From: Candidatus Krumholzibacteriota bacterium | Lineage (GTDB): Bacteria > Krumholzibacteriota > Krumholzibacteriia > JAJRXK01 | Direction: 5' to 3' | DNA length: 64,000 nt | Assembly (NCBI GenBank): GCA_024276305.1 | Contig: JAJRXK010000090.1 | Coordinates: 42,794 to 106,793 of the forward strand | Shown here: positions 4,800 to 39,683 of the stretch, piece by piece | Position numbering within the stretch: the stretch's first letter is position 1 | How the letters are laid out: each line of letters starts with the position of its first letter | Program-made: the position numbers and the translations under genes | Notes under the pieces: generated by a model | Told to the model about the DNA's origin: nothing | The model's database searches: none | Seen by the model: only the letters and a program-made list of their open reading frames with translations

Positions 4800-5190
4800 T
4801 GCGAGTGGGAATCGGACAGGTGGCCGCGGGCTCCGCTTCGGAGCGCGAGGAAAGTCCGAGCACCAAAGGGCAGGATGCTGGGGAAATCCCAGGGGGAGCA
4901 ATCCCACGGAAAGTGCCACAGAGAAGAGACCGCCTAAGGAAGCCTCGGCTTCCCGGCAAGGGTGAAACGGTGGGGTAAGAGCCCACCGCCTCTCCGGTGA
5001 CGGAGAGGGCACGGTAAACCCCATCTGGTGCAAGACCGAATAGGGGGGGAGAGGCGGCCCGCCTCGTTGGACTCCCGGGTAGGTCGCTGGAGCGGAGGGG
5101 GAACCCTTCGCCTAGAGAAATGGTCGCCGCCCCGAGATTCGTGAGAAGCTCGGGGGACAGAACTCGGCTTATGACCGGTTCCCACTCGCT
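4800..5190 (+). ncRNA. rnpB: RNase P RNA (bacterial type A)
   Basis: Universal RNase P RNA blocks read directly: GGAAAGTCCGAGC (P4 5' strand), GGGTGAAACGGTGGGGTAAGAGCCCACC (P10-P12 region), ACAGAACTCGGCTTA (P4 3' strand). A P1 helix pairs GCGAGTGGGAATCGG (about 4801) with CCGGTTCCCACTCGC (about 5176-5189). Ends are approximate to within about 5 nt. Confidence 0.88.
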
Positions 5191-21286: not shown

Positions 21287-22657
21287 ATGGATTTTCTCCA
21301 GACTCTTCTCGCCTTCTTCTTCGTCCTCGGGGCTGTCGTGGTGCTTCACGAAATGGGGCACTTCCTGGTGGCCAAGTCCGTGGGCATCTACTGCAAGACC
21401 TTTTCGGTGGGTTTCGGTCCCCGGATCTTCCGACGCCAGTGGGGAGAGACCGAGTATCAGATCGCGGCGATTCCCTTCGGGGGCTTCGTCAAGATGGCGG
21501 GGGAAGGGGCGTTGGAAGAGCTTCAGGACGTGGGCAGCTCCGGCAGCGGCCTCGACATCGCGCCCGATGGCCAGCCCATCCCTCCCGATCGCTACTTCCT
21601 GAACAAGACTCCCTGGCAGCGTCTCGCGGTGATCGTGGCCGGGCCACTCATGAATCTGGTCCTGGCGTTGGTGGTGCTGGTCGGGCTCTACGTGGTGCAG
21701 GGCGTCGAGGACATCCCGGCCAACCGGGTCGGGACTGTGGTGGAAGGCAGCGCCGCGGATCGAGCCGGCATCGAAGTCGGCGATCGTTTGGTGGAAATCG
21801 GCGGAGAGACTTTCGACTACTGGTATTCGGGTCTGCAGACCCTCGTCGAGGACTACGAGAGTCGTGGCGCGCCGGTGCCCATCACTCTCGAACGCAGTGG
21901 GGAAATGCTGCGGGTCGATCTCGAGCCCGAACGGATCGAGGGGCGTTGGTCGGTCGGCATGCGCTACCAGGCGGATCCTCGGGTGGGTAATGTGAAGCAG
22001 GGTGGGCCGGCCTGGAAGGCGGGGCTCCGGCGTGGCGATGTCATCCTGGCCATCGATGGAGAGCCCATCACCACCTATTCGCAGATCGTCGAGAAGGTGC
22101 ACGCGAGCATCGACACTCCTCTCGAGTTCAGATGGTTGCACGAGGGCGAGGAGCGGAGCGCGGCGGTCACTCCGCAGAAGGCGACGGTTCCGGTTTCGCT
22201 CGCGGAAACCGAGGTCGTGGGACGGGTCTATTTCGAGGAGTATCGGGAATCGATTTCTCTGCCCTTCACCACCGCGGTGGCGATGGGGACCCGGACCACC
22301 TGGGGGATGGTGGAGCAAACCGCTTCGTTCCTGAAGACCCTGGTGACGAAAGGAGCGTCCAAGGATTCCGTGAGCGGCCCTCTGCGGATCGCGCAATTCT
22401 CGGGAGAGATGTCGCGCTGGGGATTCGATTACCTGCTGCGCTTCCTCGCTCTCTTCAGCGTGAATCTCTTCCTGCTCAACCTCCTGCCCGTGCCCGTCCT
22501 CGACGGGGGGCATGCCGTATTCATCATTTATGAACTCGTTCTGCGGCGCCCAGCCAACCAGCGCGTGCAGGCAACCGCAACCCAGGTCGGCTTCGTGGCG
22601 CTCATGCTCTTGATGGCGTGGGTGGTGACCATGGACTTGATCAGCGTGGTGAGCTAG
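21287..22657 (+). CDS. rseP: RIP zinc metalloprotease RseP (site-2 protease) with PDZ domains
   Basis: HEMGHFLVAK (HExxH in TM1), PDZ segments, and a C-terminal LDGG motif. Confidence 0.9.
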   Translation: MDFLQTLLAFFFVLGAVVVLHEMGHFLVAKSVGIYCKTFSVGFGPRIFRRQWGETEYQIAAIPFGGFVKMAGEGALEELQDVGSSGSGLDIAPDGQPIPPDRYFLNKTPWQRLAVIVAGPLMNLVLALVVLVGLYVVQGVEDIPANRVGTVVEGSAADRAGIEVGDRLVEIGGETFDYWYSGLQTLVEDYESRGAPVPITLERSGEMLRVDLEPERIEGRWSVGMRYQADPRVGNVKQGGPAWKAGLRRGDVILAIDGEPITTYSQIVEKVHASIDTPLEFRWLHEGEERSAAVTPQKATVPVSLAETEVVGRVYFEEYRESISLPFTTAVAMGTRTTWGMVEQTASFLKTLVTKGASKDSVSGPLRIAQFSGEMSRWGFDYLLRFLALFSVNLFLLNLLPVPVLDGGHAVFIIYELVLRRPANQRVQATATQVGFVALMLLMAWVVTMDLISVVS

Positions 22658-22687: not shown

Positions 22688-23104
22688 TCAGTCCGGAGAG
22701 GCATCCCCTGAAGATTCCGAGAAAGTCTGGGGAGTTCCGGGCGGGAAGATCCGATCCCGCAGGGCTTCCAGGCTGTCGTGGATTGCGGCCAGGACGGCGG
22801 CGCCCCTCGGCGTGTCTTCGGCCAGTCGATCGAGGAGTGCTTCTCTCTGCGCTTCGTCGTAGAGTGAGGGCAGAGCGGCAAGGAGAGAATCCGCAAGCTG
22901 CGGATCCCGGGTGCGTTCCACTCGGATTCGAGCCAGTTCGACCGTCTCGTTCACGAGGCGTTGTTCTGCGGTGTCGAGCTTCACGGTCCGTTCGCGAGGA
23001 GATTCGCAGGCCACGAGGGCCAGGAGGGCCAGGAGGGTCCAGGCAACGAGGAAGGGGTCGCGGGCGGTTCCTTTCGGTGGGCAGGGATGGACATAGCGGA
23101 ACAT
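22688..23104 (-). CDS. Hypothetical small lipoprotein, about 138 aa
   Basis: Minus-strand ORF with N-terminal signal MFRYVHPCPPKGTARDPFLVAWTLLALLALVAC (lipobox LVAC). Helical, balanced composition with GC3-biased codons. No plausible plus-strand ORF fills the 445-nt rseP-bamA gap. The ATG chosen is the internal Met of track ORF 22688..23269. Confidence 0.45.
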   Translation of the reverse strand: MFRYVHPCPPKGTARDPFLVAWTLLALLALVACESPRERTVKLDTAEQRLVNETVELARIRVERTRDPQLADSLLAALPSLYDEAQREALLDRLAEDTPRGAAVLAAIHDSLEALRDRIFPPGTPQTFSESSGDASPD

Positions 23105-25205
23105 GCAGCACCAACTCGGCAGACACGTGGCAATGGCGAACACCTCGGAGCTTAAGCCCGTCCCGAGATCGTGTCGAGGGGCCGCTCGACGCGGCGCTCG
23201 GCGGAAGAGCTGGAGACTGCTCGGGTTCCTGACGATCCTGCTGACCGCCGGTCCCTTTGCCACCGCCAATGCCGACGAAGAACTCGATTGGGGCTTCGAT
23301 CAACGGGCATTGGACCGGATCGAATTCGAGGGCAATGAGGCTTTCTCGGACCCTCAACTGCGGAAGTTCTTTCTCGTGGACCACGCTCCCTGGTACGACA
23401 TCTTCGGTCGGGATCGCTACCGGACGGACCAGCTGCGTCAGGGCGTCGAAACCCTGCGAAACTTCTATCGCAGCCAGGGATTCCACCGCGCCGAAGTGAG
23501 TCTCGATCACATCGACGAGAGAGATGTTGGCGGCGATGTGGTCGTGGTTCGAGTGGTGGAAGGTCCTCAGACTCGGGTCGAGAGCGTCGACTTCGTCCAC
23601 CCGGATCCGCTCACCGCCGAGGAACTCGGCGCCCGGGTGAAGATTCACCCCGGGGGGCCGGCGCCCGCCGGTCGGGCCGGATTGGGAGGGGACCTCTACC
23701 GCATTCTCGACGCCTATCTCGTCCGGGGGCATCTCGGCGCGAGGGTGCAGGACGAGATCACCTTGGGGGATTCCACGGCCACGATCGTCTACACCATTCG
23801 TGCGGGGCCGGTCTATCAGGTGCGGCAGGTTCTCGTCGAGGGACAGAGAAAGACACGGCGGGAGCACATCGAGCGAGAGCTGAAGATCCACGCGGGGGAT
23901 CCCTTCGATGCCACGAAGATCGCGAGGACCGAAGCGGAGCTCCTGGACTTGGGATTGTTCCGCGACGTCAGCTTCCGGCCTGCGAACTTGGACAGCGCGG
24001 CGGCCCAAGCGGATCTGGTGGTGACGGTCGTCGAAAGAGAGACCGGATTCTACGAGCTCGGCCTGGGGACCGGTGACGAGGAGAGGGTGCGGCTCAGCGC
24101 AGCCTGGGGAGATCGGAATGTCCGAAGGAGTGGACGATCGATCACTGTGCGGGGACGGCTGGCTCTGGTGGGAGAGAATCGTTTCGACAATGTTCGCAGC
24201 GACGAATACAACCTCGACCATCGCGAGGAGATTCTCTACCGCAGTCCGCGTTTTCTGGGGACGCGCTTCGATCTCAATCTCAACACCTTCTTCCGCAAGG
24301 AGTCGAGACCTCGGTCGGGAGTGGAACTCCAACGCTGGGGATTGCTCGCGAACACCGTTCTGTACTCGCGTCCTTCGACCTCGATTGCTCTCGAAGGGGG
24401 CGTCGAGAACGTGCTTCGTCTGCCCCTGGGAAATGTCGCCAGCGCCAGCGACTTCTTTCCCAACCGTCGTGCGCAGACCCGGGCGGTGAGCCTGGTGATC
24501 ACCAGCGACAGCCGGGACGACTTCTTCGACCCCCGCAAGGGCAGCGAGCGACAGTTGCTGTTGCAGCTGGCAGGGGGGCCGTGGTTCGGTGGCGACAACA
24601 CCTTCAACAAGGCTCTCGCGAGCTGGACTCGCTTCGTCCCTCTTCCGAGGGGAGTGACCCTGGGTCTGCGGGCCCAGATGGGATGGGCGGAGGCCTGGTG
24701 GAGTTCGAAGAGCGACGGAGTTCCCTTCGAGGACCGTTTCTTCGCGGGGGGCAACCGCAGTGTGAGGGGATACCAGGAGAATTCCCTGGGCCCGAGAGCG
24801 ACGGTTCAGGATATCCAGGATGTGGCCGACGAGACCTTCTTGGCCAATCGTCCGACCGCGGGAGGGGGTGCGCTTCTGCTCAGCAATGCCGAACTGCGCT
24901 TCCCCGTCCCCCTCTTCGGACGATGGGGGTTTTCGGCGGCGATTTTTCTCGACGGGGGCAATGTCTGGGAGAATTGGGGAAAGGTGTCGCTCCGTCAGTT
25001 CAGCCTGTCGAAGTCGAGGGAAGAGACCACGGTGCGGGACTACCGTTTGAGCTACGGCCTCGGCGTGCTCTACAATACTCTGGTCGGGCCCTTGCGTCTC
25101 GACTACGGCGTGCCACTGCATCGGGCCTCCTTCGAGGATGTCGAGGGCAATCGCGAAGTCGACCCATCCCACCTCTGGCATTTCTCTCTGGGACACGCGT
25201 TCTAG
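23103..25205 (+). CDS. bamA: Outer membrane protein assembly factor BamA (Omp85)
   Basis: Signal peptide ...WRLLGFLTILLTAGPFATANA, POTRA-like repeats, barrel motifs FFAGGNRSVRGYQENSLGP and AIFLDGGNVWE, C-terminal ...HFSLGHAF. Start is uncertain (ATG 23103 or ATG 23133). Confidence 0.85.
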   Translation: MQHQLGRHVAMANTSELKPVPRSCRGAARRGARRKSWRLLGFLTILLTAGPFATANADEELDWGFDQRALDRIEFEGNEAFSDPQLRKFFLVDHAPWYDIFGRDRYRTDQLRQGVETLRNFYRSQGFHRAEVSLDHIDERDVGGDVVVVRVVEGPQTRVESVDFVHPDPLTAEELGARVKIHPGGPAPAGRAGLGGDLYRILDAYLVRGHLGARVQDEITLGDSTATIVYTIRAGPVYQVRQVLVEGQRKTRREHIERELKIHAGDPFDATKIARTEAELLDLGLFRDVSFRPANLDSAAAQADLVVTVVERETGFYELGLGTGDEERVRLSAAWGDRNVRRSGRSITVRGRLALVGENRFDNVRSDEYNLDHREEILYRSPRFLGTRFDLNLNTFFRKESRPRSGVELQRWGLLANTVLYSRPSTSIALEGGVENVLRLPLGNVASASDFFPNRRAQTRAVSLVITSDSRDDFFDPRKGSERQLLLQLAGGPWFGGDNTFNKALASWTRFVPLPRGVTLGLRAQMGWAEAWWSSKSDGVPFEDRFFAGGNRSVRGYQENSLGPRATVQDIQDVADETFLANRPTAGGGALLLSNAELRFPVPLFGRWGFSAAIFLDGGNVWENWGKVSLRQFSLSKSREETTVRDYRLSYGLGVLYNTLVGPLRLDYGVPLHRASFEDVEGNREVDPSHLWHFSLGHAF

Positions 25206-28200
25206 ATGGCATGGATCCGTCGCACCCGGGTGACTCTCCTCGTGGGCCTGCTTCTGGCGCTCGCGACTCTGGCGTGGCTGGTGGCGCATCCGTCCATCTA
25301 CTCCGGACAACTCGGTCGGATCATCACTGACAATCTGCTCCGCAAGTCCGGAGCAGCTCTGACCTTCGAGAGTCTCGACGGGAATCCTCTCCGAAATCTG
25401 ACCTTTCACACCGTCTCGTTGACCCGTTCGTCCGAGGATGGGAGCTTCGTCTATCTCACTGCGGACAGCCTGTCCATCGACTATGACCTGCGATCCTTCT
25501 TCACTCCCTCCCCTCATCTACGCTCCTTGGTTCTGGGCCCGGCCCAACTCCTGGTGCGTCGGCCCGCCGGAGACGATCCGGTACGCGAGGCGTCGGGTGT
25601 CCGCCTCTTCGATGCTTCGGTCCAAGTGGACTATGCCCGTCTCGATCACCTCGAGGTCTCGGTGACCGAATCTTCCGGCGATCAGCTCGACGGCTGGGAG
25701 GACATCCAGTGGGTGGGGTCCGTGCGGACGGGGCTGGATCACAGCGTCCAGATCCACACCGCTCGTCTGGCGGGACGATGGGGAAGAAGGGATCTCACCC
25801 TGCACCGCGCCAGTTTCGACGCGGTGATCCGCGGGCGTGAGGTGCAGGTGAAGACGGCGGCGGTGCGGCTCGACAGCACGCTGGTCGACTTCGATCTGGA
25901 CCTCACCCGGTCGGTGGGCGGGGGCGTGGACCGTTTCGTCCTCGAGGCAAGGGCGGAGGCTTTCTCCCTCAACGAGATCCTCCGGCTGTTGGGGAAGGAT
26001 CCCGGTCCGCGTCTGAGCCTGCAGGGGAAGGCGCGGCTCGACTATTCGAATCGGGTCCTGCGCCTCGGAGGAGCGGTGGAAGGATGGTTGGGAAGCTATC
26101 CCCTCTCGGCGAGGTCCTTCGAGGCCTCGGTGGATTCCACCGGGCTGCACCTCGCCAGGGCGGAGGGGACCTTCCTCTCCGCGGTGGGGGAGGTCCGCGG
26201 GGACCTGGACCTGCAATCGGGACTTCTGAGTCTGGAGGGGGGCTTCTCGGGGGCGGATCTCTCCGATCCCTGGGTCCCGACGGGCCGCCGTTGGCCCGCC
26301 TGTCGCCTCGGTGGCCGGGTGAAGATGGAGCTCAATGCCCGTCCTCCTCTGAGGCTGGACCTCGAGTTGTCCCGGCTTCGCGGTGACATCGTGGGGTTGC
26401 CCGTGGACTCCGCCCGCACCCGACTCCGTTTCCGGGAGGGAGAGGGTCTGGAGATCCTCTCCGGCCGCGCTCGGATTCTGGGCACCGGCTTCGCGATCAC
26501 CGGCTCCGTGGATGCCCTCGACCGCGCCGAAATGGCCATCACCCTCGAGGGATCGGATTCGAAGCCCTGGCAGGATCGCTTCGACTTGCCTCTTCGGGCC
26601 GAGGACTACACCGCGGTGGCTCGCATTTCGGGGGTCGTCGATTCCCTTGCCCTGAGGGTGGGTGGGGTTGCGGCACGTTTGAACGGTCCCTCGGTCCGAA
26701 GCGAGGACAATGCCTTCGTGGTCGACTTGCCGCGGGTCGCCGATCTCAGCCGGGCCCGAGGGCAGTTGCGGGCGGGGCGATCCCGGATCCGGGGCTTCGA
26801 CGGTGGAGAAGTTCGGATCGATTTCGAGAGAGAGGGTGATCGGCTGCGGGTCGAGCCCATGCAGCTCTCCCTGTCGGACTCCGTCCTGCGATGGACGGGA
26901 GCGGTGGATTGGTCGCGGGGCACGCCCACGGTAGAGCTCGACTCCCTCGAATTCAGGACTTCCGCTCAGCACTGGTGGTTGGAGGAGGCATCTCGGGTCG
27001 ATCTCTTTGCCGATGGATTGCGCACCGAGGGTCTTCGGTTGCGCAGCGAGGCGGGCCGGCTGCAGATGGTGGGAAGCGCCCGGATAGATGCGAATCTCAG
27101 CCTCCGTCTCGGCGTCGAAGATGGCGACCTGGCTTCTCTCCACCGCCTGGGACTCCTCACCACCGCCGCTTCGGGCCATTTCGACGCGGATCTGGAATTC
27201 GGGGGGAGCCTGGACCGGCTCCTGGCTCGGGTCCGCGTCGAGGTGGCGGACGCGGAGGTCGGAGGTCGGTCCCTGGGACAGGGTCGCTTCGAGGCCCGCG
27301 TCGAGGGACGAGAGGTGTTTCTGGACCGGGTATCGGTGCGAGGCGGATTGGGGGGACTGGAGGTCGCGGGAAGAGTGACGACCCCGGCGGACGATTGGCC
27401 TCGGACCCTGGTGAACACTCCGCAGGCCTTGGGCGACCTCTGGAAACAGTCCGTGCTGGACCTCAGCGTGGTGACCGACACCCTGGCCACGGCTCCACTC
27501 CTCGACCCCGCGGCGGCGCGGCGGCGATTCGGCCTGGTCTCCTCGGACCTTCAGCTGCGGGGGACTCCGCTGCACCCTCGCCTGGTCGGCGACTTGGACA
27601 TCCGGAGGATCGAGACCTCCGCCCTGGTGGTGCCTCGTCTGCGCGCGCGCATCGAGAGCGACGAGCGGGGAGTTCATGTGGGACAGGGCAGCCTGGGAGT
27701 GGAGAAGCCCTGGCTGGAGGTGGCGGGCTACTTGCCCCTCGACCTCTCGCTGGCGGGCGCGCCGCACTGGAATGCCGCCGACGGCCTGCAGTTGCGGATC
27801 TGGTCGCCGTCGGAGGTCGACTTGGCTCCCCTGATGGATTTCTGGCCTCTGGCGAGAGCCGTCCGTGGTCGCGGCGACTTCGAATTCGTCGCGGTGGGCG
27901 ATCCCAGCGCTCCGCAGCTCTCGGGCACCATCGAATTGCACGATGTGGAGCTGGGTCTGCGGGGTTGGTCGGAGAGCCTGCGCGAGGGTCAGCTGGAAGC
28001 CCATTTCGAAGGCAATCGACTGGTGATCGATCGCCTCGAAGCCCGGGAGGGCGCAAAGGGGAGAGTGCAGGCCCACGGTGAAGTGATTTTTCGGGGGTTG
28101 TTGCCCGATGATGTCTGGGCCGATTTCCGCCTCCACCGGGTGCTCCTGGCCAGCGTCCCCTATTTGCGAGCGGTGGGGAGCAGTGACGGCCTGCGTCTGC

Positions 28201-29096
28201 GTCTCGCACGTCCGAGCCCCGACGCACCTCGAGCTCCTCACCTCACGGGGACGGTGCAGGTGGACAAAGCCATCTACACCGGCGAATTCGCTTCTGGAGG
28301 CGGGGCGGAGTTCTTCGGACCGAATCTGACGCCGCAGTGGACCGCAGATCTGGCCATCCACGCCCGTGAGCAGGTGCGAATCAGCAACCAGAGCGCCGAG
28401 TTGCGGGTGCTCGGAGATGTGGACCTCATTCGCGACACCGCGGGTTTGCGATTCCGGGGAACGGCCGAAATCCCGCGGGGCCAGGTGCCTCTCTTCAACA
28501 ATGATTTCAACATTCTCTCCGGAACCCTCGATTTCAGCCGTCGTCCGGTCGAACCCGAAGTCGACATCACCGCCGAAACCGAGGTTCCGATTTACGATCC
28601 GGGGGAAGGGGGAGGTCGCCAGCTCGAGCGGATCACCATCCATCTCACGGGAACCTTCGCTCAGCCCACGGTGACCTTCACCAGCGAGAATGGCCTGGAC
28701 GAGAACAGCATTCTGCGCTTGCTCGCCGGTTTTGGAGGGCCCAGCGAATCCACCACCGTTTCCTCGGGGGTCTCCGATGTGGGACTGCGCGCGGGATTGA
28801 ACTTTCTCGAGCGGGCTCTGGCGCAGAGAGTGCGAGGGGTGGACACCATCGACATCGAGACCGAAGAAGTCGGAGTGTCCCAAATGCAGTCCACGCGCAT
28901 CGCGGTGGGGAAATACCTGTCGGAGAGCCTCTACCTTCGGTTGAGTCAGGGACTGTCGATCACCGAGCGGGACCTCTTCCTCGAATACCAGATTTCTCGC
29001 CGGCTCCTGTTCACGAGTGAATTGAGGCGCAGACTCCGGGAGAATGGGGCCGAGAACCAATTCAATGTGGACATGAAGTTCCGGGTGAAGTACTGA
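25206..29096 (+). CDS. tamB: TamB / AsmA-like translocation and assembly module protein (DUF490 C-terminus)
   Basis: 1,296 aa. N-terminal TM anchor LLVGLLLALATLAWLV, long beta-rich repetitive body, and DUF490-like C-terminus ...ERDLFLEYQISRRLLFTSEL...FNVDMKFRVKY. ATG directly abuts the bamA stop (TAGATG). Confidence 0.8.
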   Translation: MAWIRRTRVTLLVGLLLALATLAWLVAHPSIYSGQLGRIITDNLLRKSGAALTFESLDGNPLRNLTFHTVSLTRSSEDGSFVYLTADSLSIDYDLRSFFTPSPHLRSLVLGPAQLLVRRPAGDDPVREASGVRLFDASVQVDYARLDHLEVSVTESSGDQLDGWEDIQWVGSVRTGLDHSVQIHTARLAGRWGRRDLTLHRASFDAVIRGREVQVKTAAVRLDSTLVDFDLDLTRSVGGGVDRFVLEARAEAFSLNEILRLLGKDPGPRLSLQGKARLDYSNRVLRLGGAVEGWLGSYPLSARSFEASVDSTGLHLARAEGTFLSAVGEVRGDLDLQSGLLSLEGGFSGADLSDPWVPTGRRWPACRLGGRVKMELNARPPLRLDLELSRLRGDIVGLPVDSARTRLRFREGEGLEILSGRARILGTGFAITGSVDALDRAEMAITLEGSDSKPWQDRFDLPLRAEDYTAVARISGVVDSLALRVGGVAARLNGPSVRSEDNAFVVDLPRVADLSRARGQLRAGRSRIRGFDGGEVRIDFEREGDRLRVEPMQLSLSDSVLRWTGAVDWSRGTPTVELDSLEFRTSAQHWWLEEASRVDLFADGLRTEGLRLRSEAGRLQMVGSARIDANLSLRLGVEDGDLASLHRLGLLTTAASGHFDADLEFGGSLDRLLARVRVEVADAEVGGRSLGQGRFEARVEGREVFLDRVSVRGGLGGLEVAGRVTTPADDWPRTLVNTPQALGDLWKQSVLDLSVVTDTLATAPLLDPAAARRRFGLVSSDLQLRGTPLHPRLVGDLDIRRIETSALVVPRLRARIESDERGVHVGQGSLGVEKPWLEVAGYLPLDLSLAGAPHWNAADGLQLRIWSPSEVDLAPLMDFWPLARAVRGRGDFEFVAVGDPSAPQLSGTIELHDVELGLRGWSESLREGQLEAHFEGNRLVIDRLEAREGAKGRVQAHGEVIFRGLLPDDVWADFRLHRVLLASVPYLRAVGSSDGLRLRLARPSPDAPRAPHLTGTVQVDKAIYTGEFASGGGAEFFGPNLTPQWTADLAIHAREQVRISNQSAELRVLGDVDLIRDTAGLRFRGTAEIPRGQVPLFNNDFNILSGTLDFSRRPVEPEVDITAETEVPIYDPGEGGGRQLERITIHLTGTFAQPTVTFTSENGLDENSILRLLAGFGGPSESTTVSSGVSDVGLRAGLNFLERALAQRVRGVDTIDIETEEVGVSQMQSTRIAVGKYLSESLYLRLSQGLSITERDLFLEYQISRRLLFTSELRRRLRENGAENQFNVDMKFRVKY

Positions 29097-29262
29097 CCCT
29101 CCCCGATGCGGAGGGGTGGAGAGCGACGCGGCATGTGAACAAGAGACCGGAGATTTGACCGGCCCCGGCCGAGTCCAGTATCCTTGTTGCAGATACGGAC
29201 GCTTCCCATCCTCGCCGCTTTCGCGCCCGGTTGCCTGCATCGCCCCCGAGACAGGACTCGTG

Positions 29263-32200
29263 ATGCTCTCGATCCTTTCCGTGCGTTTGCGCCCTGCCGC
29301 TGTGATTGGCGCTCTCTTCGTGCTGGTGTCGATCATGGGCTCGGTCGGCTCCGCCACCGCGCAGTTCTTCGGACGCAACAAGGTCCAGTACGAGAATTTC
29401 GATTGGAAGATTCTCAACACTCCCCACTTCGAGATCTTCTTCTATCCCCAGGAAGAGCAACTCGCGGCAAGGGCGGGAGTGATCGCCGAGGATGCCTATG
29501 CGCGGTTGAGCGGGATTTTCGACCACGATCTGAGCAAGCGGATCCCCTTCGTGCTCTACGCTTCGCCCAACGACTTTCAGCAGACCAACATCAGTGATGG
29601 GCTGATCGGCGAGGGGACCGGCGGGTTCTCCGAGCCCATGCGCAATCGAATGGTACTTCCCTATCCGGGTGACAACGCTGGATTCGTCCACGTGATCAAT
29701 CATGAACTCGTCCATGTCTTCATGTTCGACATCGTTTTCGGGAGCACCCAGTCCGGAGGTGCCCGGGACCGATGGTTCCAGGTTCCGCTGTGGTTCGCGG
29801 AGGGGATGGCCGAATGGTTCAGCAGCGGTTGGGACGATCAGGCCGACATGTGGATGCGCGATGCCACGATCTACGACTGGGTGGTACCCCTGCACCGCAT
29901 CTACGGGGGGTTCCAAGTCTACAAGGAAGGTCAAGCGGCACTCCACTATGTGGCCCAGACCTACGGCGAGCCCAAAGTCGTCGAGGTGTTCAAGGCCCTC
30001 GGACGGACTCGGGACGCGGATCGCGCCGTGGAGCAGACCATCGGTCTGAATACCGAAGAGCTCTCCGAAGCCTGGATGAAGTCACTGAAGCAGGGCTATT
30101 GGCCTCTCTATGGGAACAAGCAGGAGCCCGAAGATCTGGGTCGTCGTCTCACCGACCACTGGAAAGAGGGAGCCTACTTCTTCCAGCAGCCCGCGTTGTC
30201 GCCCGATGGACGCTACATTGCGATGTTCAGCGACTACGACGGATTGGTGAATCTCTACCTGATGGACGCGATCGAGGGAAGAGTGCTCCGCAAGTTGGTG
30301 ACCGGCTATCGGAGCAATCAATTCCTGACTTTTCACAGCTTCGAGAGTTCGATCAGCTTCTCTCCGGACAGCGAGGCGGTGGCGTTCATCGCGAAGAGTG
30401 GGCGAGACGAGCACCTGTTCGTGATCGATGTCGAGTCGGGGAAGGTGCTCCGGGACATCGGGCTGCAGATGGACATCGCGCGAAGCCCGGCCTGGTCTCC
30501 GCAGGATGGGCAGGTGGTCCTGAGTGGAACGCGGAGAGGACAGACCGACCTCTACCTCGTCGACCTCGATCTCGGCGAAGTGAGAGCTCTCACCGATGAC
30601 ACCATCGACGAGCATTCCCCCGCCTGGTATCCCGATGGACGTCGGATTCTCTACAGCGCTCATCCCGCGACCACCGAGGACTTGTCCTTCATTCGCGACG
30701 AGGACGGCACCGTACGCATCGAAGGAGATCCCCTGCGCAAACCGACGCTGATCGAGGCGGATTCCGGATTCGATCTCTATCGTCTGGCGCTGTCCACCGG
30801 AGAAACGGAGATCGCGGTCTCGACTTCGGGAGACGACACCGACCCCTTCGTGGTGAACGACAGCACCATCGTCTTCATTTCGAATACCACCGGAGTTTCG
30901 AATCTGTGCAGCTTCGACGAGAGTTCGGAGCAGGTCCGTCGCCTTTCCGATGTGCTGGGAGGGGTGTTCCAGCCCAGTATGAGCCGCGAGACCGACCGCT
31001 TGGCCTTCACCGTGTTCAACCACGCGGGCTTCGACATCTTTCTGCGCGAGAATTTCACCGAGTTGCTCTCCGCGGAGGGTTTTCCGCTGGAAGCAGAGAC
31101 CGAATTGGTCCAGGCCCCACCGAGGCCCGACCCGGTGGAGGGGTCCGGCGAGGGGACGGCCGGTGAGGCCGGCGCGGTCACTACGGAGCTCGAACCCCTC
31201 GGGAAGCGGGTGGTGGCGGAGGTTGCGCGGGCGGATACCCATCGATCGACCGGAGGGGGCGTGGTGACCGTGGCCACGATGCCGGCCGCCCCCGACTCGG
31301 CTGCCGCCGATTCAGTCCTTGCCCCCAGCCCGGAGGAGTCCGAGGCTCCGGATATGGAAGAGTTGGTCGCCGCGGCGGTGGCGGTCGCGGACAGCGGCGG
31401 AGCCGGAGATCCTTCGATCGGAACCGTCGAACCCTACCGACTGCGCTTCTCGCTCGACCCCTACAGCGCAACCGGCGGGGGTGGGGTCTTCTACGCTCAG
31501 GGCCTGGGTTTCGGCGCGGCTCAGCGGATTTCGCTCAGCGACCTCCTCGGCAACCACCGAATGAGCTTCTTGATCAACTTCTACGGTTCGATCAAGAACA
31601 GTGATCTGGCGGCCAGCTATACCTACCTGAAGCGGCGCGTGAACGTCTCGGGGGGAGTGTTTCACTACCGGAACATCCTCAACAGCAACTTCACCAGCAT
31701 CGGCGAGGTCTTCGACAACAATCGCCTGTTCACCGAACGCAACTACGGGTTGTTCGGCCTCGCGAGCTATCCCTTCTCGCAGTTCAATCGACTCGATTTC
31801 GAGCTTCAGGCCTTCGTGAGCGACAAGAGCTTCTTCGAATACAATCGCTTCACCGGCTTCTACGAGCAGGTGGGGGAACGGCAGAGAGATACGCTGGTCC
31901 AGCCCTCCTTGACCTATGTCCACGATTCCACTTTCTACGGGCAGTACGGTCCAGTGACCGGCAGCCGGTGGCAAGTTTCCTTCTCGCCCGCCATCCCGGT
32001 CGGCGGCGAGCAGGGTGTCGATCGCACTACGAGCTATGTGGACTACCGGCGCTACTTCCGGCTCTGGGACCGCAATGGCTTGGCGCTTCGGTTCATCGGG
32101 GCGCAGAGCGTGGGCGGTCAACCCCGCAAGTTCGTCATCGGAGGAGCCCAGACCCTTCGGGGTTGGGATATCTTCGACTTCGAGCGAGTGAATGCCGACG

Positions 32201-32553
32201 GTAGTCCACGCCACCCCAATCTGGTGGGGAGCAAGATGTTCATGTTGAATCTGGAATACCGTTTTCCCTTCGTGGACGCGCTCATTCTGGGATGGCCGGG
32301 GCGTTTCGGGATTGGAGGGATTTCGGGCGCGGTTTTCATGGACACCGGGGCAGCCTACGACGGGGCCTTCCGATTCTTCAGTCGGACCGAGAGCGGGACG
32401 CGGCGACTCCAGGACTTGAATGCGGATTTCGGCTTTGGTATAAGGGCGAATGTCGGTTGGTTGCCACTTCGCTTCGATTGGGCGTGGAAGACCGATCTCG
32501 CCGAGACCAGCAACGATATTCGCTATTCCTTTTCGATCGGCCCGTCCTTCTAG
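29263..32553 (+). CDS. Multidomain outer-membrane protein: signal peptide, HExxH gluzincin-like metallopeptidase-like domain, TolB-like PD40 beta-propeller, long low-complexity linker, Omp85-family (bacterial surface antigen) beta-barrel
   Basis: Signal MLSILSVRLRPAAVIGALFVLVSIMGSVGSATAQ. HINHELVHVFMFD followed by LWFAEGMAEWF (HExxH with a downstream Glu). PD40 repeats (SPDGRYIAMFSDYDGLVNLYLMD, SPDSEAVAFIAKSGRDEHLFVID, SPAWSPQDGQVVLSG...TDLYLVDL, SPAWYPDGRRILYSA). Gly/Ala/Pro/Glu-rich linker. C-terminal barrel with GGAQTLRGWDIFDF, GAVFMDTGAAYD, terminal ...RYSFSIGPSF. The track start (29116) is trimmed to the Met that begins the signal peptide. Confidence 0.8.
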   Translation: MLSILSVRLRPAAVIGALFVLVSIMGSVGSATAQFFGRNKVQYENFDWKILNTPHFEIFFYPQEEQLAARAGVIAEDAYARLSGIFDHDLSKRIPFVLYASPNDFQQTNISDGLIGEGTGGFSEPMRNRMVLPYPGDNAGFVHVINHELVHVFMFDIVFGSTQSGGARDRWFQVPLWFAEGMAEWFSSGWDDQADMWMRDATIYDWVVPLHRIYGGFQVYKEGQAALHYVAQTYGEPKVVEVFKALGRTRDADRAVEQTIGLNTEELSEAWMKSLKQGYWPLYGNKQEPEDLGRRLTDHWKEGAYFFQQPALSPDGRYIAMFSDYDGLVNLYLMDAIEGRVLRKLVTGYRSNQFLTFHSFESSISFSPDSEAVAFIAKSGRDEHLFVIDVESGKVLRDIGLQMDIARSPAWSPQDGQVVLSGTRRGQTDLYLVDLDLGEVRALTDDTIDEHSPAWYPDGRRILYSAHPATTEDLSFIRDEDGTVRIEGDPLRKPTLIEADSGFDLYRLALSTGETEIAVSTSGDDTDPFVVNDSTIVFISNTTGVSNLCSFDESSEQVRRLSDVLGGVFQPSMSRETDRLAFTVFNHAGFDIFLRENFTELLSAEGFPLEAETELVQAPPRPDPVEGSGEGTAGEAGAVTTELEPLGKRVVAEVARADTHRSTGGGVVTVATMPAAPDSAAADSVLAPSPEESEAPDMEELVAAAVAVADSGGAGDPSIGTVEPYRLRFSLDPYSATGGGGVFYAQGLGFGAAQRISLSDLLGNHRMSFLINFYGSIKNSDLAASYTYLKRRVNVSGGVFHYRNILNSNFTSIGEVFDNNRLFTERNYGLFGLASYPFSQFNRLDFELQAFVSDKSFFEYNRFTGFYEQVGERQRDTLVQPSLTYVHDSTFYGQYGPVTGSRWQVSFSPAIPVGGEQGVDRTTSYVDYRRYFRLWDRNGLALRFIGAQSVGGQPRKFVIGGAQTLRGWDIFDFERVNADGSPRHPNLVGSKMFMLNLEYRFPFVDALILGWPGRFGIGGISGAVFMDTGAAYDGAFRFFSRTESGTRRLQDLNADFGFGIRANVGWLPLRFDWAWKTDLAETSNDIRYSFSIGPSF

Positions 32554-32606
32554 CTTCTCTTCGGATTCGGTGAGAGCTCGATTGCGCTGGGGCCTGGGGA
32601 GTCTTC

Positions 32607-34943
32607 ATGCTCGAGGGCCTCAATTCACCACAGCGCCAGGCCGTCTCCCATCCCGGCGGACCGCTCCTGGTGATCGCCGGCGCGGGCAGCGGCAAGACCC
32701 GCGTTCTCACCACCAGAATCGCGTGGTTGATTCGGGAGTGCGGCGTCGCACCGGAAAGCATTCTCGCCTTCACCTTCACGAACAAGGCCGCTCGAGAGAT
32801 GCGGCAACGCGTCGATCAGATGGTACCCGAGGCCCAGGGGAGATGTTGGATCGGCACCTTCCACTCTACCGGGGTCCGAATTCTGCGCAGCGAGGGACAT
32901 CGTCTGGGCTACGATCGCTTCTTCACGATCTACGATGCCGACGATTCGCGGGCCCTGCTCAAGAAGATCGTGCAGGACCTCGAACTCGACACCAAACAGT
33001 ATTCGCCTCGCCAGCTCGGATCGGAGATCAGCGGGCACAAGAACCACTTTCGATCTCCCGAACAGGTCATGGCGACATCGATCACTCCTCGGGATCAGAA
33101 GGTGGCCGAGGTCTACGCCGAATACGGTCGCCGGCTGCGCGAGAATGGCGCGATGGACTTCGACGATCTCATCGCCAAGACGGTCGAACTCTTCGAGGAC
33201 CATCGAGAGGTGCAGGAGCGTTACAGCCAGCGTTTCGAGCACGTGCTCGTGGACGAGTTCCAGGATACCAATCCCTTGCAGCTGGTCATGGTGCGAGCGC
33301 TGAGCGCGCGCCACGGAAATCTGTGTGCGGTGGGCGATGACGATCAGTCGATCTACTCGTGGCGGGGCGCGACGGTGGAGAACATGCTGGGATTCGAGGA
33401 ATACTTTCCCGGATCCACCTTGGTTCGACTGGAACAGAATTACCGCTCCACCTCCCTCATTCTCGAAGCGGCGAATGCCGTCATCGCTCACAATCGTCGA
33501 CGCAAGGGCAAGACTCTCTGGAGTGACCGCTCGGGGGGGGCGCCCATCGAGCTGTGGTGGGCCGAAGACGAGCACGAAGAGGGACGCAAGATTCGGGATC
33601 GGATTGGACGACTCCTCGCCGAGACCGACGCGCGACGCAGGGACATCGTGGTTCTCTATCGCACCAACGCTCAGAGCCGTGCGGTCGAAGATGCCCTGCG
33701 GCGAGAATCGATTCCCTATCAGATCGTGGGAGGCACTCGCTTCTACGAGCGGCGCGAGGTCCGGGATCTGTTGGCCTACCTCAAGTGTGTACAGAATCCG
33801 GCCGACAGTGTCAGCTTCGCCCGGATTCTGAACGTTCCCAAGCGGGGCATCGGCAAGACCAGTGCTTCGCGCTTCTTCGAATTGGCGCAGCGGATGGGCA
33901 CGGTGTCGGATGCCCTCTCCGACCGGGGGCGTCTGCTGAGTTCCTGTGGCAAAGCGGCGGCCGGCCGATTGGCGGCCTTCGGACAGTTGCTTCAGTCCTT
34001 GCGGCGTCTGGCCGAGAACGCCGATGCCGCCGCGGTATTGCGGCAGGTGATCGAGGCGACGAAGTACGAGAACTACCTGCGGGAAGACGATCCCACGACC
34101 GCCGACGACCGCCTCGAGAATGTCTACGAGCTCGTGAATGCGGCCGAGGAGTTCTCGGTCGAGAGCGATGAGCCGGGGCTCGGTCCCTTTCTCGAGAGCG
34201 TGGCGCTCCTGGCCGAAGTGGACAAGATGAGTGACGAGACGGACCAGGTGACTCTGATGACCGTCCACAATGCCAAGGGTCTCGAGTTCCCCTACGTTTT
34301 CATCGCGGGCTGCGAGGAGGGACTGCTTCCCCACGCCTCGTCCCTCGAGGACGATGATCAGCTGGAGGAAGAGCGGCGCTTGTTCTACGTTGCCCTCACC
34401 CGGGCCGAGGAAGCGGTATTTCTGACCGCTTCTGCCATGCGCCGCCGCTTTGGTAGTAGTGAGCCGGCGGCGGCCAGTCGTTTCGTGGGCGAGATTCCCG
34501 AAGAGCTCGTGGCCGAGATGGGGGGGCTGGCTTTCGGATCGCGATTCCAAGCGCCTCGAAGTCTCGGAGAGCGTCGGTGGAATTCGATCTCTACCTCTGC
34601 CCCGGCCAAGAGGCCGCGGAGATCGCGGGATCAGGGGGTATCGGCGGACGCCCTCGCCGACGCTCAGGCTTTCCTCCGGAGCCGGGCGCGATCCAAGGCT
34701 CGGGCTCGAAAGGAAGTTGCGGACCACGGCTTCGAAGACCACGATCTGACTCAGGAGGAACTCTGCTATCGGGTGGGGGCCAGGGTGGAGCACGAGCTGC
34801 TGGGGGAGGGGGTGATCGAGGAGATCGAGGGCGTTGGAGATCTCTTGCGTCTCACCGTGAGTTTCGGTGAACGTGGGCGGAAGCGGATTCTTGCCCGCTA
34901 CGCTCGTCTGCGCCTCCTCGACACGGAAGCTGGAGCTCAGTAG
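32607..34943 (+). CDS. pcrA: ATP-dependent DNA helicase, UvrD/PcrA/Rep family
   Basis: Walker A AGAGSGKTRVLTTRIAWL and helicase motifs (FTNKAAREM, VLVDEFQDTN, VGDDDQSIYSWRGA, ...VHNAKGLEF). 778 aa. Assignment between pcrA and uvrD cannot be made from sequence alone. Confidence 0.88.
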   Translation: MLEGLNSPQRQAVSHPGGPLLVIAGAGSGKTRVLTTRIAWLIRECGVAPESILAFTFTNKAAREMRQRVDQMVPEAQGRCWIGTFHSTGVRILRSEGHRLGYDRFFTIYDADDSRALLKKIVQDLELDTKQYSPRQLGSEISGHKNHFRSPEQVMATSITPRDQKVAEVYAEYGRRLRENGAMDFDDLIAKTVELFEDHREVQERYSQRFEHVLVDEFQDTNPLQLVMVRALSARHGNLCAVGDDDQSIYSWRGATVENMLGFEEYFPGSTLVRLEQNYRSTSLILEAANAVIAHNRRRKGKTLWSDRSGGAPIELWWAEDEHEEGRKIRDRIGRLLAETDARRRDIVVLYRTNAQSRAVEDALRRESIPYQIVGGTRFYERREVRDLLAYLKCVQNPADSVSFARILNVPKRGIGKTSASRFFELAQRMGTVSDALSDRGRLLSSCGKAAAGRLAAFGQLLQSLRRLAENADAAAVLRQVIEATKYENYLREDDPTTADDRLENVYELVNAAEEFSVESDEPGLGPFLESVALLAEVDKMSDETDQVTLMTVHNAKGLEFPYVFIAGCEEGLLPHASSLEDDDQLEEERRLFYVALTRAEEAVFLTASAMRRRFGSSEPAAASRFVGEIPEELVAEMGGLAFGSRFQAPRSLGERRWNSISTSAPAKRPRRSRDQGVSADALADAQAFLRSRARSKARARKEVADHGFEDHDLTQEELCYRVGARVEHELLGEGVIEEIEGVGDLLRLTVSFGERGRKRILARYARLRLLDTEAGAQ

Positions 34944-34963
34944 CCTCAACCAGGAGCGAAGCC

Positions 34964-35539
34964 ATGGAAACGGTTCGACCCCCTTGCCGCCATCGATCCG
35001 GAGGACCCGAGGTGGTCGGTCGATGGTGCTGCGTGGTCGTCGTCGTGGTTTCGGTCCTGGCGATGGTGGGGCCGGCATGGCCCGCTACCTCTCGCCCAGG
35101 CTCGCCTCCCGAGGGCGGGCGCTTCCTGAGCCAGCAGGACAGCCTGGGTTACGACGACTATCGCGAACTCGATCACGACACCCAGCTCGAACGACGCGAG
35201 TCGGCGAAGCGCTGGGCCAAACGGGTTCGCGAGACCCGACGCCGCGCTGCGCAACAGGTGGAGAGCTCGGCTGCGGTTCGGATCTATCGCCAAGCCCTCG
35301 ACGAGGCGGCGACGGTGGTCGGACTCTGTCCCTATTTCCCCGAGGGTTGGCTCCTCTACGCCGACGTCCTCAACCACCTGGGATACTATGTCTCGGCCGA
35401 ACTCTGCCTCGACCACGCGGAGAGCACTCTGGCCTATGAACGCAACTCCAAGCATCGACGTCAGCTCGTGGGAGATCTGCACGGACAGCGTGCGGTGATC
35501 GCTTACAACCGTGGCGATTGGGCGACGAGTGCGGCGTAA
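34964..35539 (+). CDS. TPR-repeat protein, N-terminal segment (membrane-anchored); terminates at an in-frame TAA that interrupts a TPR motif
   Basis: N-terminal hydrophobic anchor CCVVVVVVSVLAMVGPAWPA and TPR-like helices. Same reading frame as ORF 35591..36577, which resumes 17 codons later. See findings. Confidence 0.55.
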   Translation: METVRPPCRHRSGGPEVVGRWCCVVVVVVSVLAMVGPAWPATSRPGSPPEGGRFLSQQDSLGYDDYRELDHDTQLERRESAKRWAKRVRETRRRAAQQVESSAAVRIYRQALDEAATVVGLCPYFPEGWLLYADVLNHLGYYVSAELCLDHAESTLAYERNSKHRRQLVGDLHGQRAVIAYNRGDWATSAA

Positions 35540-35590
35540 TCCGAGCAGGCGCAGGAGGCGCGGCCCAACGACTCGAAGTGGACGCTGCTC

Positions 35591-36577
35591 TTGGCCCGGT
35601 CGCTGAATGCTCTGGGCCGCTACGACGAGGCCCGCAAGATCCTCGATGAGATCGATCCGGACCGCCCGGCCAAGGCCACCGCGCTCAGCGTGTTGGGTCT
35701 GATCGAGATGTCCGCGGGAGACCTGGATGCGGCCCAGAAAGCCTTCGACGCGGCCGCGAGACGAGGTATGCGGAGTGCGGTGTTCCACAATGATCGGGGG
35801 CGTCTGGCCCTCCTCCGCGAGGACTACGATCGAGCGGAGGAAGAATTCGAGAAGGCCATCGCGATGGCTCCTTCCTTCATCGAGGCTCGCAGCAATCTGG
35901 CGGTGGCTCATCGGCGGGCGGGTCGGCTCGACGAGGCTCAGGAGGTGTTGGAATCGCTCATCGACAATCGGCCGAACTACGGTGCGGCCCATTTCAATCT
36001 GGCCGAGGTGTTGCGAGAGGAATTGACCGATCTCGATGCACCCGCACGCGAGGCGAAGGCCCGCATGGCTCTGAACCACTATTCCCGGGCATTGGAGCTG
36101 GGGTTCTCCCCCGAGCAGGTGATCGAACGCCGAGCGAGTCTCGCGGCGGCGGTGGACGATCTGGACCTCGCGGAGGAGGACTTTCTCAAGATGGCCGAGG
36201 ATCCGGAAATCAGCGGCGATGTGCTCCATCGTTTGGGTCGAGTGAAGCGGGATCAGGGACGGCCGGATATCGCGCAGAAGCTCTTCGAGATGGCGATCGA
36301 ACGCGGAGCCGACGGGGCCGTGCTCTACAGCGATTACGGCGGGATTCTGCTCGCGGACTCGGATTTCGAAGGAGCACGTCGGGCCTTCGAGGCAGCCCTC
36401 GAACGAAATCCCGACCTGTTGATCACCCGGGTGAATCTGAGCATCGCATGGATGGAGTTGGGAGACGACCTTCGGGCGGCCAAGGTTCTGCGGCCGGCAT
36501 TGCGGGTTGCTCCCGACCATCCGGTCGTACGCGCGCAGCGCATTCAGCTCGAGAAGTTGGGGCAGAGTTTTGACTGA
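35591..36577 (+). CDS. TPR-repeat protein, C-terminal segment (probably the same gene as 34964..35539)
   Basis: Multiple TPRs (ALGRYDEARKIL, AAHFNLAEVL, ...). The listed TTG start gives an atypical N-terminus. The frame is open back to the TAA at 35537-35539. Confidence 0.55.
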   Translation: MARSLNALGRYDEARKILDEIDPDRPAKATALSVLGLIEMSAGDLDAAQKAFDAAARRGMRSAVFHNDRGRLALLREDYDRAEEEFEKAIAMAPSFIEARSNLAVAHRRAGRLDEAQEVLESLIDNRPNYGAAHFNLAEVLREELTDLDAPAREAKARMALNHYSRALELGFSPEQVIERRASLAAAVDDLDLAEEDFLKMAEDPEISGDVLHRLGRVKRDQGRPDIAQKLFEMAIERGADGAVLYSDYGGILLADSDFEGARRAFEAALERNPDLLITRVNLSIAWMELGDDLRAAKVLRPALRVAPDHPVVRAQRIQLEKLGQSFD

Positions 36578-38271: not shown

Positions 38272-39683
38272 ATTCGCCTCCACTGGTGATCGGACTCGAA
38301 GTCCACGTCCAACTTCGGACCCAGACCAAGCTCTTCTCTCGGTCGCTGCACTGCTACGGCGCGCCGAGGAACACTCTCGTCGACCCTCATTGCCTGGGTT
38401 TGCCGGGCACTCTTCCGATTCTCCAGGAGCGGGCCGTAGAGCTCGCGCTGCGCCTGGCCGCCGCCCTCGGGATGGAGATCTCGGAGTGCTCCCGCTTCGA
38501 TCGCAAGCACTACTTCTATCCGGATCTCCCCAAGAACTACCAGATCACGCAGCAGAGCCATCCGCTGGCCCGAGGTGGAGCGCTGCGGCTCTCGGTCGAC
38601 CAGGGCTCCTCTGCGGTTGCGATCCAGCAGCTCCATTTGGAGGAAGATGCCGCACGCTGTCTGCATCAGGAGCAGGAGACTCTCTTGGACTTCAACCGGG
38701 CGGGGGCCCCGCTGGTCGAAGTGGTCACCGATCCGGTGATCACCGATGCACTCCAGGCGGGAGAGTTTCTCCGGGAGATGCGCCGTCTGGTGCGGTGGAT
38801 CGGGGTCAGCGATGGCAACATGAACGAGGGGAGCCTGCGCTGCGACGCCAACATCTCTTTGGACGCCGAGGGCTTTCGAGGAGTGGTGGTGGAGGTCAAG
38901 AACCTCAACTCCATCGCGCAGGTGGTGGAGGCTCTGGACTTCGAGGCGGCGCGATTGCGGCGGGCTCACCGGGAGGGGCGGTGTCCACGGGCTCAGACGC
39001 GGTTCTGGTCGCCCTCCTCTCGATCCACGGGGGTTCTGCGGGAGAAGGAGTCGAGGGCGGATTACCGATACTTGCCCGATCCGGACCTTCCCCCGCTGCG
39101 GATCTCGCCCGCCCGCATCGGTCGGGCGGTGGCGGCCATCGGCGAGTTGCCCCTCGATTGCTGCCTCCGCTTCCAGGACCAGTTCGGGATCTCGGAGGAG
39201 CATGCGGTGCAGCTCACCCAGAACCGGATGGAGGCCGAGTACTTCGAACAGGTCGCAAGAAGGGTGGGAGGTCCGCTGGCGGCGTCCTGGATCCTGTCGG
39301 AGTTGCGATACCACCTGCATCGGACGGATTGTACGATCTCCGACTCGCCGGTCTCCGCCGAGGACTTGGCGCAGCTCCTCTCGGCGGCAGAGAAAGTCTC
39401 GGCGCCTCGGTCCTTGATCCGTGGGCAGCTGAGCCGCATCTTCGATGGGGAGTCGACGGTCGCAGGCTTCGGGGCCCACTGTCGCCGACATCGGCGGCCG
39501 GAAGAGGAGGTTCGGGAGACTCTCGATCGGATTCTGAAGGAGAATGCGGCCCTGGTGGTGGACTACCGAAGGGGCAAGCACGGGGTACTCGACCATCTGA
39601 TGGGGCTTGCGTTCCGCGATCTGGGAGACGGTGTGGACGCCCGGCAATTGCGGCAATGGTGCCAGGAGGAGTTGGAAGGATGA
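38268..39683 (+). CDS. gatB: Aspartyl/glutamyl-tRNA(Asn/Gln) amidotransferase subunit B
   Basis: LVIGLEVHVQL..TKLFS, KHYFYPDLPKNYQITQ, YRYLPDPDLPP are GatB motifs. GTG start overlaps the gatA stop (GTGA); the track N-extension is rejected. Confidence 0.9.
   Translation: MNSPPLVIGLEVHVQLRTQTKLFSRSLHCYGAPRNTLVDPHCLGLPGTLPILQERAVELALRLAAALGMEISECSRFDRKHYFYPDLPKNYQITQQSHPLARGGALRLSVDQGSSAVAIQQLHLEEDAARCLHQEQETLLDFNRAGAPLVEVVTDPVITDALQAGEFLREMRRLVRWIGVSDGNMNEGSLRCDANISLDAEGFRGVVVEVKNLNSIAQVVEALDFEAARLRRAHREGRCPRAQTRFWSPSSRSTGVLREKESRADYRYLPDPDLPPLRISPARIGRAVAAIGELPLDCCLRFQDQFGISEEHAVQLTQNRMEAEYFEQVARRVGGPLAASWILSELRYHLHRTDCTISDSPVSAEDLAQLLSAAEKVSAPRSLIRGQLSRIFDGESTVAGFGAHCRRHRRPEEEVRETLDRILKENAALVVDYRRGKHGVLDHLMGLAFRDLGDGVDARQLRQWCQEELEG

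Follow-up and report, generated by a model that had tools for sequence, protein, structure and literature searches.

The window analysed here is a 64,000-nucleotide (nt) stretch (G+C content 63.7%) of contig JAJRXK010000090.1 from a Candidatus Krumholzibacteriota bacterium, and it encodes a bamA-type Omp85 gene whose stop codon directly abuts the start of tamB. Together these genes probably form a two-gene outer-membrane biogenesis operon, in which a BamA orthologue at the ancestral site behind rseP, cut down to the equivalents of POTRA3-5 of E. coli BamA, is paired with a TamB protein that is anchored in the inner membrane and bridges the envelope. The coordinates given by an earlier reading of this DNA (hereafter the original prediction) for the open reading frames (ORFs), the TAGATG junction, a hairpin behind tamB, and the 166-nt spacer downstream were all correct when the sequence was re-read (Table 1).

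The assignment of the Omp85 gene as BamA-type is supported by its synteny with rseP as well as by sequence and fold. Upstream of it, the window contains rpsB, tsf, and frr, followed by uppS, cdsA, and dxr (starts at 18339, 19075, and 20021) and by rseP, which is the classical bamA neighbourhood. The encoded protein contains an Omp85 barrel (Pfam PF01103, 143.7 bits) and POTRA repeats, and aligns in one stretch with the NCBIfam BamA model TIGR03303 (252.1 bits), beginning at profile position 152 of 741. The TamA model NF047950 and the TamL model NF052279 score 78.6 and 102.4 bits against cut-offs of 625 and 400 bits, respectively. In phmmer searches of the PDB, BamA chains matched at 110–118 bits, and in the top chain (5or1_A) query residues 60–341 aligned with chain residues 177–460 (81.5 bits), a segment that we read as BamA POTRA3-5. 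E. coli TamA matched at 45 bits over the barrel only (4c00_A), and the sole match to TamA POTRA domains reached 26 bits (8us1_A). The best 50 Foldseek matches of the predicted structure in the PDB were all BamA.

Further features of the protein fit an outer-membrane barrel of this family. A signal peptide of about residues 1–47, ending in ...LLTAGPFATANA/DEE, has no lipobox cysteine, and the protein is therefore not TamL-like. The C-terminus reads ...SLGHAF, with the final phenylalanine present in 55 of 55 relatives examined. The loop-6 motif VRGYQENSLGP and the barrel motif IFLDGGNVW are both present, and the family alignment shows no variation at residues V544, R545, G546, Y547, F605, G609, and W612. 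Motifs of the VRGY/F and FxDxG types are common to TamA and BamA, and hence do not discriminate between them.

An AlphaFold2 (AF2) model built from an alignment of 23 family members (predicted local distance difference test (pLDDT) score 81) resolves the N-terminal part into exactly three POTRA units of beta-alpha-alpha-beta-beta topology, after which come the 16 strands of the barrel. The original prediction had expected fewer than five POTRA domains in a BamA of about 690 amino acids (aa), and the model bears this out with a definite count. Instead of the canonical five POTRA domains of BamA, the three that are present align with BamA POTRA3-5 in both the NCBIfam and phmmer comparisons. No additional POTRA coding sequence lies between rseP and bamA, because a conserved minus-strand lipoprotein-like ORF fills the gap, and no second POTRA-bearing Omp85 was found within the window.

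The 1296-aa ORF that follows encodes a true TamB-family protein, and the NCBI gene call for it (P0094) has the identical sequence. Its C-terminal residues 943–1296 (nt 28032–29093) match Pfam PF04357 (TamB/DUF490) at 124.8 bits (E = 6.5e-36) over profile positions 2–381 of 381. At the N-terminus, a signal anchor read from the sequence (MAWIRRTR-VTLLVGLLLALATLAWLVA) spans about residues 9–27 (nt 25230–25286), with 19 hydrophobic residues after RRTR. E. coli TamB was the sole match in a PDB sequence search. The AF2 model, which covers residues 97–1296 (pLDDT 84), is almost entirely beta, with a near-unbroken run of long strands, and its best Foldseek matches in the PDB were TamB in cryo-electron microscopy (cryo-EM) structures of TamAB (9xdc_B, E = 2.5e-13; 9xdd_B) together with the beta-taco fragment 5vtg. 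The DUF490 match, signal anchor, beta-taco model, and best fold matches to E. coli TamB thus uphold the AsmA/TamB-like identity first proposed for this ORF.

The protein ends in ...NVDMKFRVKY, and a terminal tyrosine or phenylalanine is found in all 47 relatives compared (47/47), within a conserved N-x-D-x-K-x-R-x-E-Y strand; passages of PMC4494059 describe a beta-signal-like C-terminus for the TamB family. The proteobacterial equivalog NF047952 scores 26.5 bits against a cut-off of 825; the protein is thus no close orthologue of the TamB of Proteobacteria, which the distance between the phyla would lead one to expect. An exhaustive HMMER search with TamB recovered 1038 homologues, many of them about 1280–1330 aa long among the best 150 of the 1038, and a word-indexed protein search returned four proteins only.

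At the junction, no nucleotides separate the bamA stop from the tamB start, and this tight spacing is a feature of the lineage. Across 41 non-redundant genomes with a resolvable junction, the gap ranges from −4 to +55 nt. In 34 cases it falls between −4 and +20 nt, and in ten the genes overlap by 1 nt. No Shine-Dalgarno sequence was found at positions −5 to −12 of tamB; other genes of the window have one. Co-transcription of bamA and tamB thus appears well supported, and the junction supports a termination-reinitiation mechanism that would couple tamB to bamA. Such coupling had been proposed from the TAGATG alone, and the conserved spacing and the lack of a well-placed Shine-Dalgarno sequence are consistent with it. 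In the window the two genes share a reading frame with only the TAG between them, but gaps in relatives include −4, −1, +2, +5, and +9 nt, so the shared frame is incidental. A read-through BamA-TamB fusion was considered and rejected on account of the C-terminal phenylalanine of BamA, the membrane anchor that TamB itself carries, and a frame relation that is not conserved; it is further disfavoured by natural fusions, which run the opposite way, from TamB to Omp85.

Genomes were scanned with the BamA-family alignment in a motif-limited search, which returned one locus per genome and about 60 loci in total. These carry the labels Candidatus Krumholzibacteriota or Krumholzibacteriia, Latescibacterota, Chitinivibrionia, and UBP1, with others filed under Fibrobacteraceae, Gemmatimonas, or just "bacterium", and the best match is 52% identical to the BamA of the window. 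The order rseP-bamA-tamB occurs, at 27–52% BamA identity, in about 50 species-level genomes from Krumholzibacteriota, some Latescibacterota-labelled genomes, and related metagenome-assembled genomes (MAGs). With the bamA-tamB pair repeated behind rseP in so many genomes, the adjacency is far beyond chance. By tblastn, the longer order uppS-cdsA-dxr-rseP-bamA-tamB-(Omp85 fusion)-uvrD was recovered in essentially all loci of sufficient length. The bamA genes of these relatives encode about 650–720 aa, with three POTRA domains in those examined; gammaproteobacterial loci from the same scan contain a five-POTRA BamA after rseP, without tamB. This motif-limited scan found no second BamA-family locus in Krumholzibacteriota-like genomes. 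No tamA was detected in the window or in the flanks of the relatives' loci, and it is to this extent, rather than genome-wide, that the absence of tamA claimed by the original prediction holds.

The most likely function of the pair, by analogy with characterized systems, would be a BamA-TamB trans-envelope complex, which we favour with reasonable though not high confidence. In Borrelia, the DUF490 domain of TamB binds POTRA2 and POTRA3 of BamA (PMC11361582), and E. coli TamAB pairs the final strand of TamB with the opening barrel strand of TamA, while the TamB cavity takes phospholipid outward (PMC12800296). All the sequence elements needed for such a docking mode are present and maintained here. 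Ribosomes that finish bamA at its UAG would reinitiate on the AUG next to it, tying TamB output to BamA output. The TamB C-terminus would then dock on the POTRA domains and lateral gate of BamA, as in E. coli TamAB and Borrelia BamA-TamB, and the resulting bridge would deliver phospholipid to the outer membrane and help beta-barrel proteins to assemble. BamA would in this way also perform the job of proteobacterial TamA. A propeller-Omp85 fusion encoded downstream would be an associated but separable third gene, with a promoter of its own in this clade.

Single ORFs of 1896–2202 aa that join TamB (DUF490), POTRA domains, and an Omp85 barrel were observed at L077:5645-11368, L081:6065-11755, and L083:5048-11656, in MAGs from Bdellovibrionota and Vicinamibacterales, and the protein P0062 has the same single-chain architecture. 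These putative fusions, which may be artefacts of assembly or frameshift, lend independent support to a direct TamB-Omp85 partnership.

More broadly, and only tentatively, the three-POTRA Omp85 could be the sole POTRA-bearing insertase in Krumholzibacteriota and allied candidate lineages of the Fibrobacteres-Chlorobi-Bacteroidetes (FCB) superphylum, serving as both the core of the machinery for assembling beta-barrels (BAM) and the outer-membrane anchor for TamB. It would then form a minimal "BamA+TamB" machine of TamA-like architecture, near the ancestral state from which the TamA-TamB module arose in the proposal of Heinz et al., with the propeller-peptidase-Omp85 protein as a lineage-specific third component.

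Several observations weigh against reading the pair as a BamA-TamB partnership. The BamA score lies below the curated TIGR03303 cut-off of 297.15 bits, a deficit matching the roughly 150 profile positions that it lacks; relatives of the clade score 271–358 bits on the same model, and that of L039 passes the cut-off. TamA is recognized by three POTRA domains joined to an Omp85 barrel, with its gene directly upstream of tamB; that architecture is found here, so that both the POTRA count and the gene position fit TamA as well. Two MAGs labelled Ignavibacteria and Zixibacteria carry tamB beside a three-POTRA BamA-like Omp85 outside the rseP context (L060:8130-11800 and L063:3306-6961), in reversed order with tamB preceding a 635-aa Omp85 that passes the BamA cut-off at 309–311 bits, and such a pair can therefore exist away from the canonical locus. 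On two complete Latescibacterota chromosomes (L033:11943-13535 and L035:11834-14299), the gene after the three-POTRA bamA encodes 530 and 821 aa, respectively, without a recognizable DUF490; the L035 protein is weakly similar to the middle of TamB, and either loss or replacement of the DUF490 end may explain these genes. Finally, translational coupling is read from the spacing, and the contact between BamA and TamB is proposed by analogy.

These points bear most directly on a rival reading, in which the Omp85 is functionally equivalent to TamA and came to fill the slot beside rseP as a three-POTRA protein dedicated to TamB, while another part of the genome encodes a canonical BamA with five POTRA domains. 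Beyond its domain count, its place immediately upstream of tamB, and its sub-threshold BamA score, this explanation draws on the proposal, in passages of Heinz 2015 (PMC4494059), that TamA derived from a duplicated BamA in an operon with TamB, and it stays alive because of the L060 and L063 pairs. We nonetheless regard it as unlikely, given its occupation of the conserved bamA slot behind rseP across about 50 genomes, the 81.5-bit match of the POTRA stretch to BamA POTRA3-5 as opposed to 26 bits at best for TamA POTRA domains (8us1_A), a TamA equivalog score of 79 of 625 bits, the single locus per Krumholzibacteriota-like genome in the motif-limited scan, and the absence of any other POTRA-bearing Omp85 in the 64-kb window.

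The E. coli AsmA-family paralogues YhdP and YdbH function without an Omp85 partner. BamA and TamB could be only co-regulated, since both serve outer-membrane biogenesis. TamB would then be a lipid bridge of the AsmA-like kind, reaching the membrane or some different partner and never docking on BamA. This alternative is raised explicitly in passages of Heinz 2015 (PMC4494059); on the E. coli AsmA-family paralogues, see also PMC11126948. It seems quite improbable here, where DUF490 and the beta-signal-like terminal strand, which dock on the Omp85 protein in TamAB, show strict conservation, and where the gap is conserved at −4 to +20 nt; moreover, TamB DUF490 of both Borrelia and Salmonella binds BamA (PMC11361582), and single-chain TamB-Omp85 fusions exist. 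It is very improbable that the outer-membrane partner of TamB is instead the downstream POTRA-less propeller-Omp85 fusion. That gene does carry an Omp85 barrel and follows tamB in most relatives, often by 8–33 nt, but it is missing in L012, L025, L028, and L051–L053, which keep bamA-tamB. It also lacks POTRA domains, the TamB contact sites in TamA and BamA (PMC12800296, PMC11361582), and in the clade of the window it is set apart by 166–291 nt and a conserved promoter-like motif of its own.

The preferred arrangement, BamA encoded with TamB, has several described counterparts. TamB occurs in almost all double-membraned bacteria, and TamA is nearly confined to Proteobacteria (PMC11361582), which raises the question of what TamB docks onto elsewhere. 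Passages of PMC4494059 likewise report that TamB is far more widespread than TamA and that operons of bamA and tamB, with neither tamA nor tamL, are common. The original prediction had pointed to such an arrangement in lineages where TamB pairs with BamA itself, and published BamA-TamB operons without TamA or TamL agree with it (PMC5582053 and PMC11361582, and passages of PMC4494059). Closest in mechanism is the TamB-BamA system of Borrelia (Borreliella) burgdorferi (PMC5582053, PMC11361582), which has no TamA, encodes TamB beside the BamA of the organism, and shows the DUF490-POTRA binding that is proposed here. It belongs to another phylum, differs in its gene order (tamB then bamA, according to passages of Heinz 2015, versus bamA then tamB here) and in the five POTRA domains of its BamA versus three here, and has no downstream propeller-Omp85 gene. 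Acidobacteria and other phyla without TamA or TamL, as described in passages of Heinz et al. 2015 (PMC4494059), share the order bamA then tamB as well as the signal anchor, DUF490, and terminal aromatic residue, and the pair is interpreted there as the ancestral BamA+TamB configuration. In Acidobacteria, however, the TamB-linked gene is a BamA duplicate carrying as many as seven POTRA domains, whereas the gene described here is the one at the rseP locus and has three.

In the proteobacterial translocation and assembly module (TAM; TamA-TamB; PMC12800296), a three-POTRA Omp85 is likewise encoded directly upstream of tamB, and the TamB fold and C-terminal strand are shared, but the Omp85 of the window is BamA-type (79 of 625 bits for TamA, POTRA domains resembling BamA POTRA3-5) and lies in the bamA locus. 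By analogy, the docking mode and the role in lipid transport are likely as in that module. Bacteroidota and Chlorobi belong, as does the present lineage, to the FCB superphylum. Their TamL-TamB systems (PMC12045153 and passages of PMC4494059) also pair TamB with a co-encoded three-POTRA Omp85, but TamL is a lipoprotein, whereas the signal peptide of the present protein is of the ordinary kind, lacking a lipobox cysteine, and the protein scores 102 of the 400 bits set for TamL. BamA with only three POTRA domains has already been described in cyanobacteria, whose BamA/Omp85 is a BamA-class insertase from an unrelated lineage (PMC2878562, PMC4104836).

BamA-TamB operons, three-POTRA BamA, and propeller-Omp85 proteins have thus each been described, and what is new is the lineage, Krumholzibacteriota and allies, for a known arrangement. 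No paper linking Krumholzibacteriota with BamA or TamB, or with this combination, was found in the literature searched; neither Krumholzibacteriota nor Latescibacterota is named in the searched passages of PMC4494059, and Fibrobacter and Gemmatimonad have no match in its main text. The locus confirms a published pattern and reveals no new mechanism. It adds an uncultured clade in which the BamA of the canonical locus takes a TamA-like three-POTRA form and appears to be translationally tied to TamB. Were this the sole BamA in the genome, the clade would offer a small system in nature with which to ask what POTRA domains are enough for both protein insertion and TamB docking, and also how TamA could arise from BamA.

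Table 1 Features of the bamA-tamB locus in the 64-kb window.
Feature	Position (nt)	Strand	Product or residues	Basis or remark
rseP	21287–22657	+	M50 site-2 protease with PDZ domains	upstream neighbour of bamA
Lipoprotein-like ORF	22688–23104	−	138 aa, lipobox L-V-A-C	between rseP and bamA, divergent from bamA
bamA-type Omp85 gene	23133–25205 (or from 23103)	+	690 aa (or 700 aa)	Pfam, NCBIfam, and PDB matches, AF2 model, synteny; stop TAG 25203–25205
POTRA-A	23301–23561	+	residues about 57–143	AF2
POTRA-B	23571–23804	+	residues about 147–224	AF2
POTRA-C	23814–24038	+	residues about 228–302	AF2
16-strand barrel	24045–25202	+	residues 305–690	AF2
TAGATG junction	25203–25208	+		bamA stop abutting tamB start; sequence, tight spacing conserved in relatives
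tamB	25206–29096	+	1296 aa	start ATG 25206–25208; Pfam and PDB matches, AF2 model
GC hairpin CCCTCC-N7-GGAGGG	29097–29115	+	6-bp stem, no U-tract	no better than chance
Sigma-70-like promoter motif TTGACC-N18-TATCCT	29155–29184	+		conserved in three near relatives
Omp85 fusion gene	29263–32553	+	1096 aa	MA-clan peptidase-like domain (intact HELVH), TolB/PD40-type beta-propeller, POTRA-less Omp85 barrel

The start of bamA is bounded by the small ORF upstream. Two in-frame ATG codons are available, the first at 23103 and the second at 23133, and the NCBI gene call (P0001) uses the latter to give 690 aa. The start at 23133 is more likely, because the ATG of the minus-strand lipoprotein-like ORF overlaps the ATG at 23103 (CATG). 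The stop of this small ORF lies near that of rseP, and given the near absence of intergenic DNA upstream of bamA, the bamA promoter must lie inside it; aligning the regions upstream of bamA in relatives revealed no conserved promoter. Relatives encode minus-strand genes of 109–121 aa at the equivalent place (tblastn E = 8e-13 to the ORF of L002), and no Pfam family matched the 138-aa product, which could be an unrecognized envelope or BAM-associated lipoprotein.

Behind tamB, the hairpin reported by the original prediction exists and lacks a U-tract as stated, but it occurs at chance frequency and carries no evidential weight. A perfect 6-bp hairpin formed in 27% of shuffled spacers, such hairpins average 0.54 per 166 nt across the window, and the spacer folded about as stably as its shuffles did (z = −0.05 over its full length, +0.9 over its first 60 nt). 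A terminator scan made no call in the spacer between tamB and the fusion gene, and a terminator at this hairpin was rejected on these grounds together with the missing U-tract. Rfam gave no match within or around the bamA-tamB operon.

The 166-nt spacer ends at the ATG of the Omp85 fusion gene (29263) and contains a promoter-like motif that recurs in the near clade. TTGACC-N18-TATCCT is also found in L001 and L005, and TTGACC-N18-TAGACT in L002; across these four spacers, which are otherwise unalignable, the motif lies 78–146 nt upstream of the fusion start. Its presence in all four (4/4) favours the separate transcription anticipated by the original prediction, and the fusion gene very probably has its own promoter in the clade of the window. 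Separations of 166–291 nt are typical of this clade, but many related clades have only 8–33 nt between tamB and the fusion gene, which there is probably part of the tamB operon. The propeller-Omp85 architecture corresponds to the WD40-Omp85 subfamily of Heinz & Lithgow 2014 (PMC4104836). The word "peptidase" appears nowhere in the main text of that paper, so this domain may be an extra element that the paper does not cover.

In positions 25206–36577, the annotated genes after bamA are tamB, the Omp85 fusion, uvrD, and a gene for a tetratricopeptide repeat (TPR) protein. In Proteobacteria, bamA is followed by skp, lpxD, fabZ, and lpxA. None of these four is among the annotated genes of positions 25206–36577, where 34944–35590 is incompletely annotated, as is the far end of the window. 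Further downstream, a 577-aa ORF at 38390–40123 on the plus strand has no Pfam match at E ≤ 1e-3. Towards the other end of the window, a bacterial class A RNase P RNA (4808–5186, plus strand, 297 bits) and adjacent plus-strand genes for tRNA-Met(CAT) and tRNA-Val(CAC) at 2911–2982 and 2992–3068 lie near rpoD, recJ, and relA/spoT, an ordinary housekeeping context.

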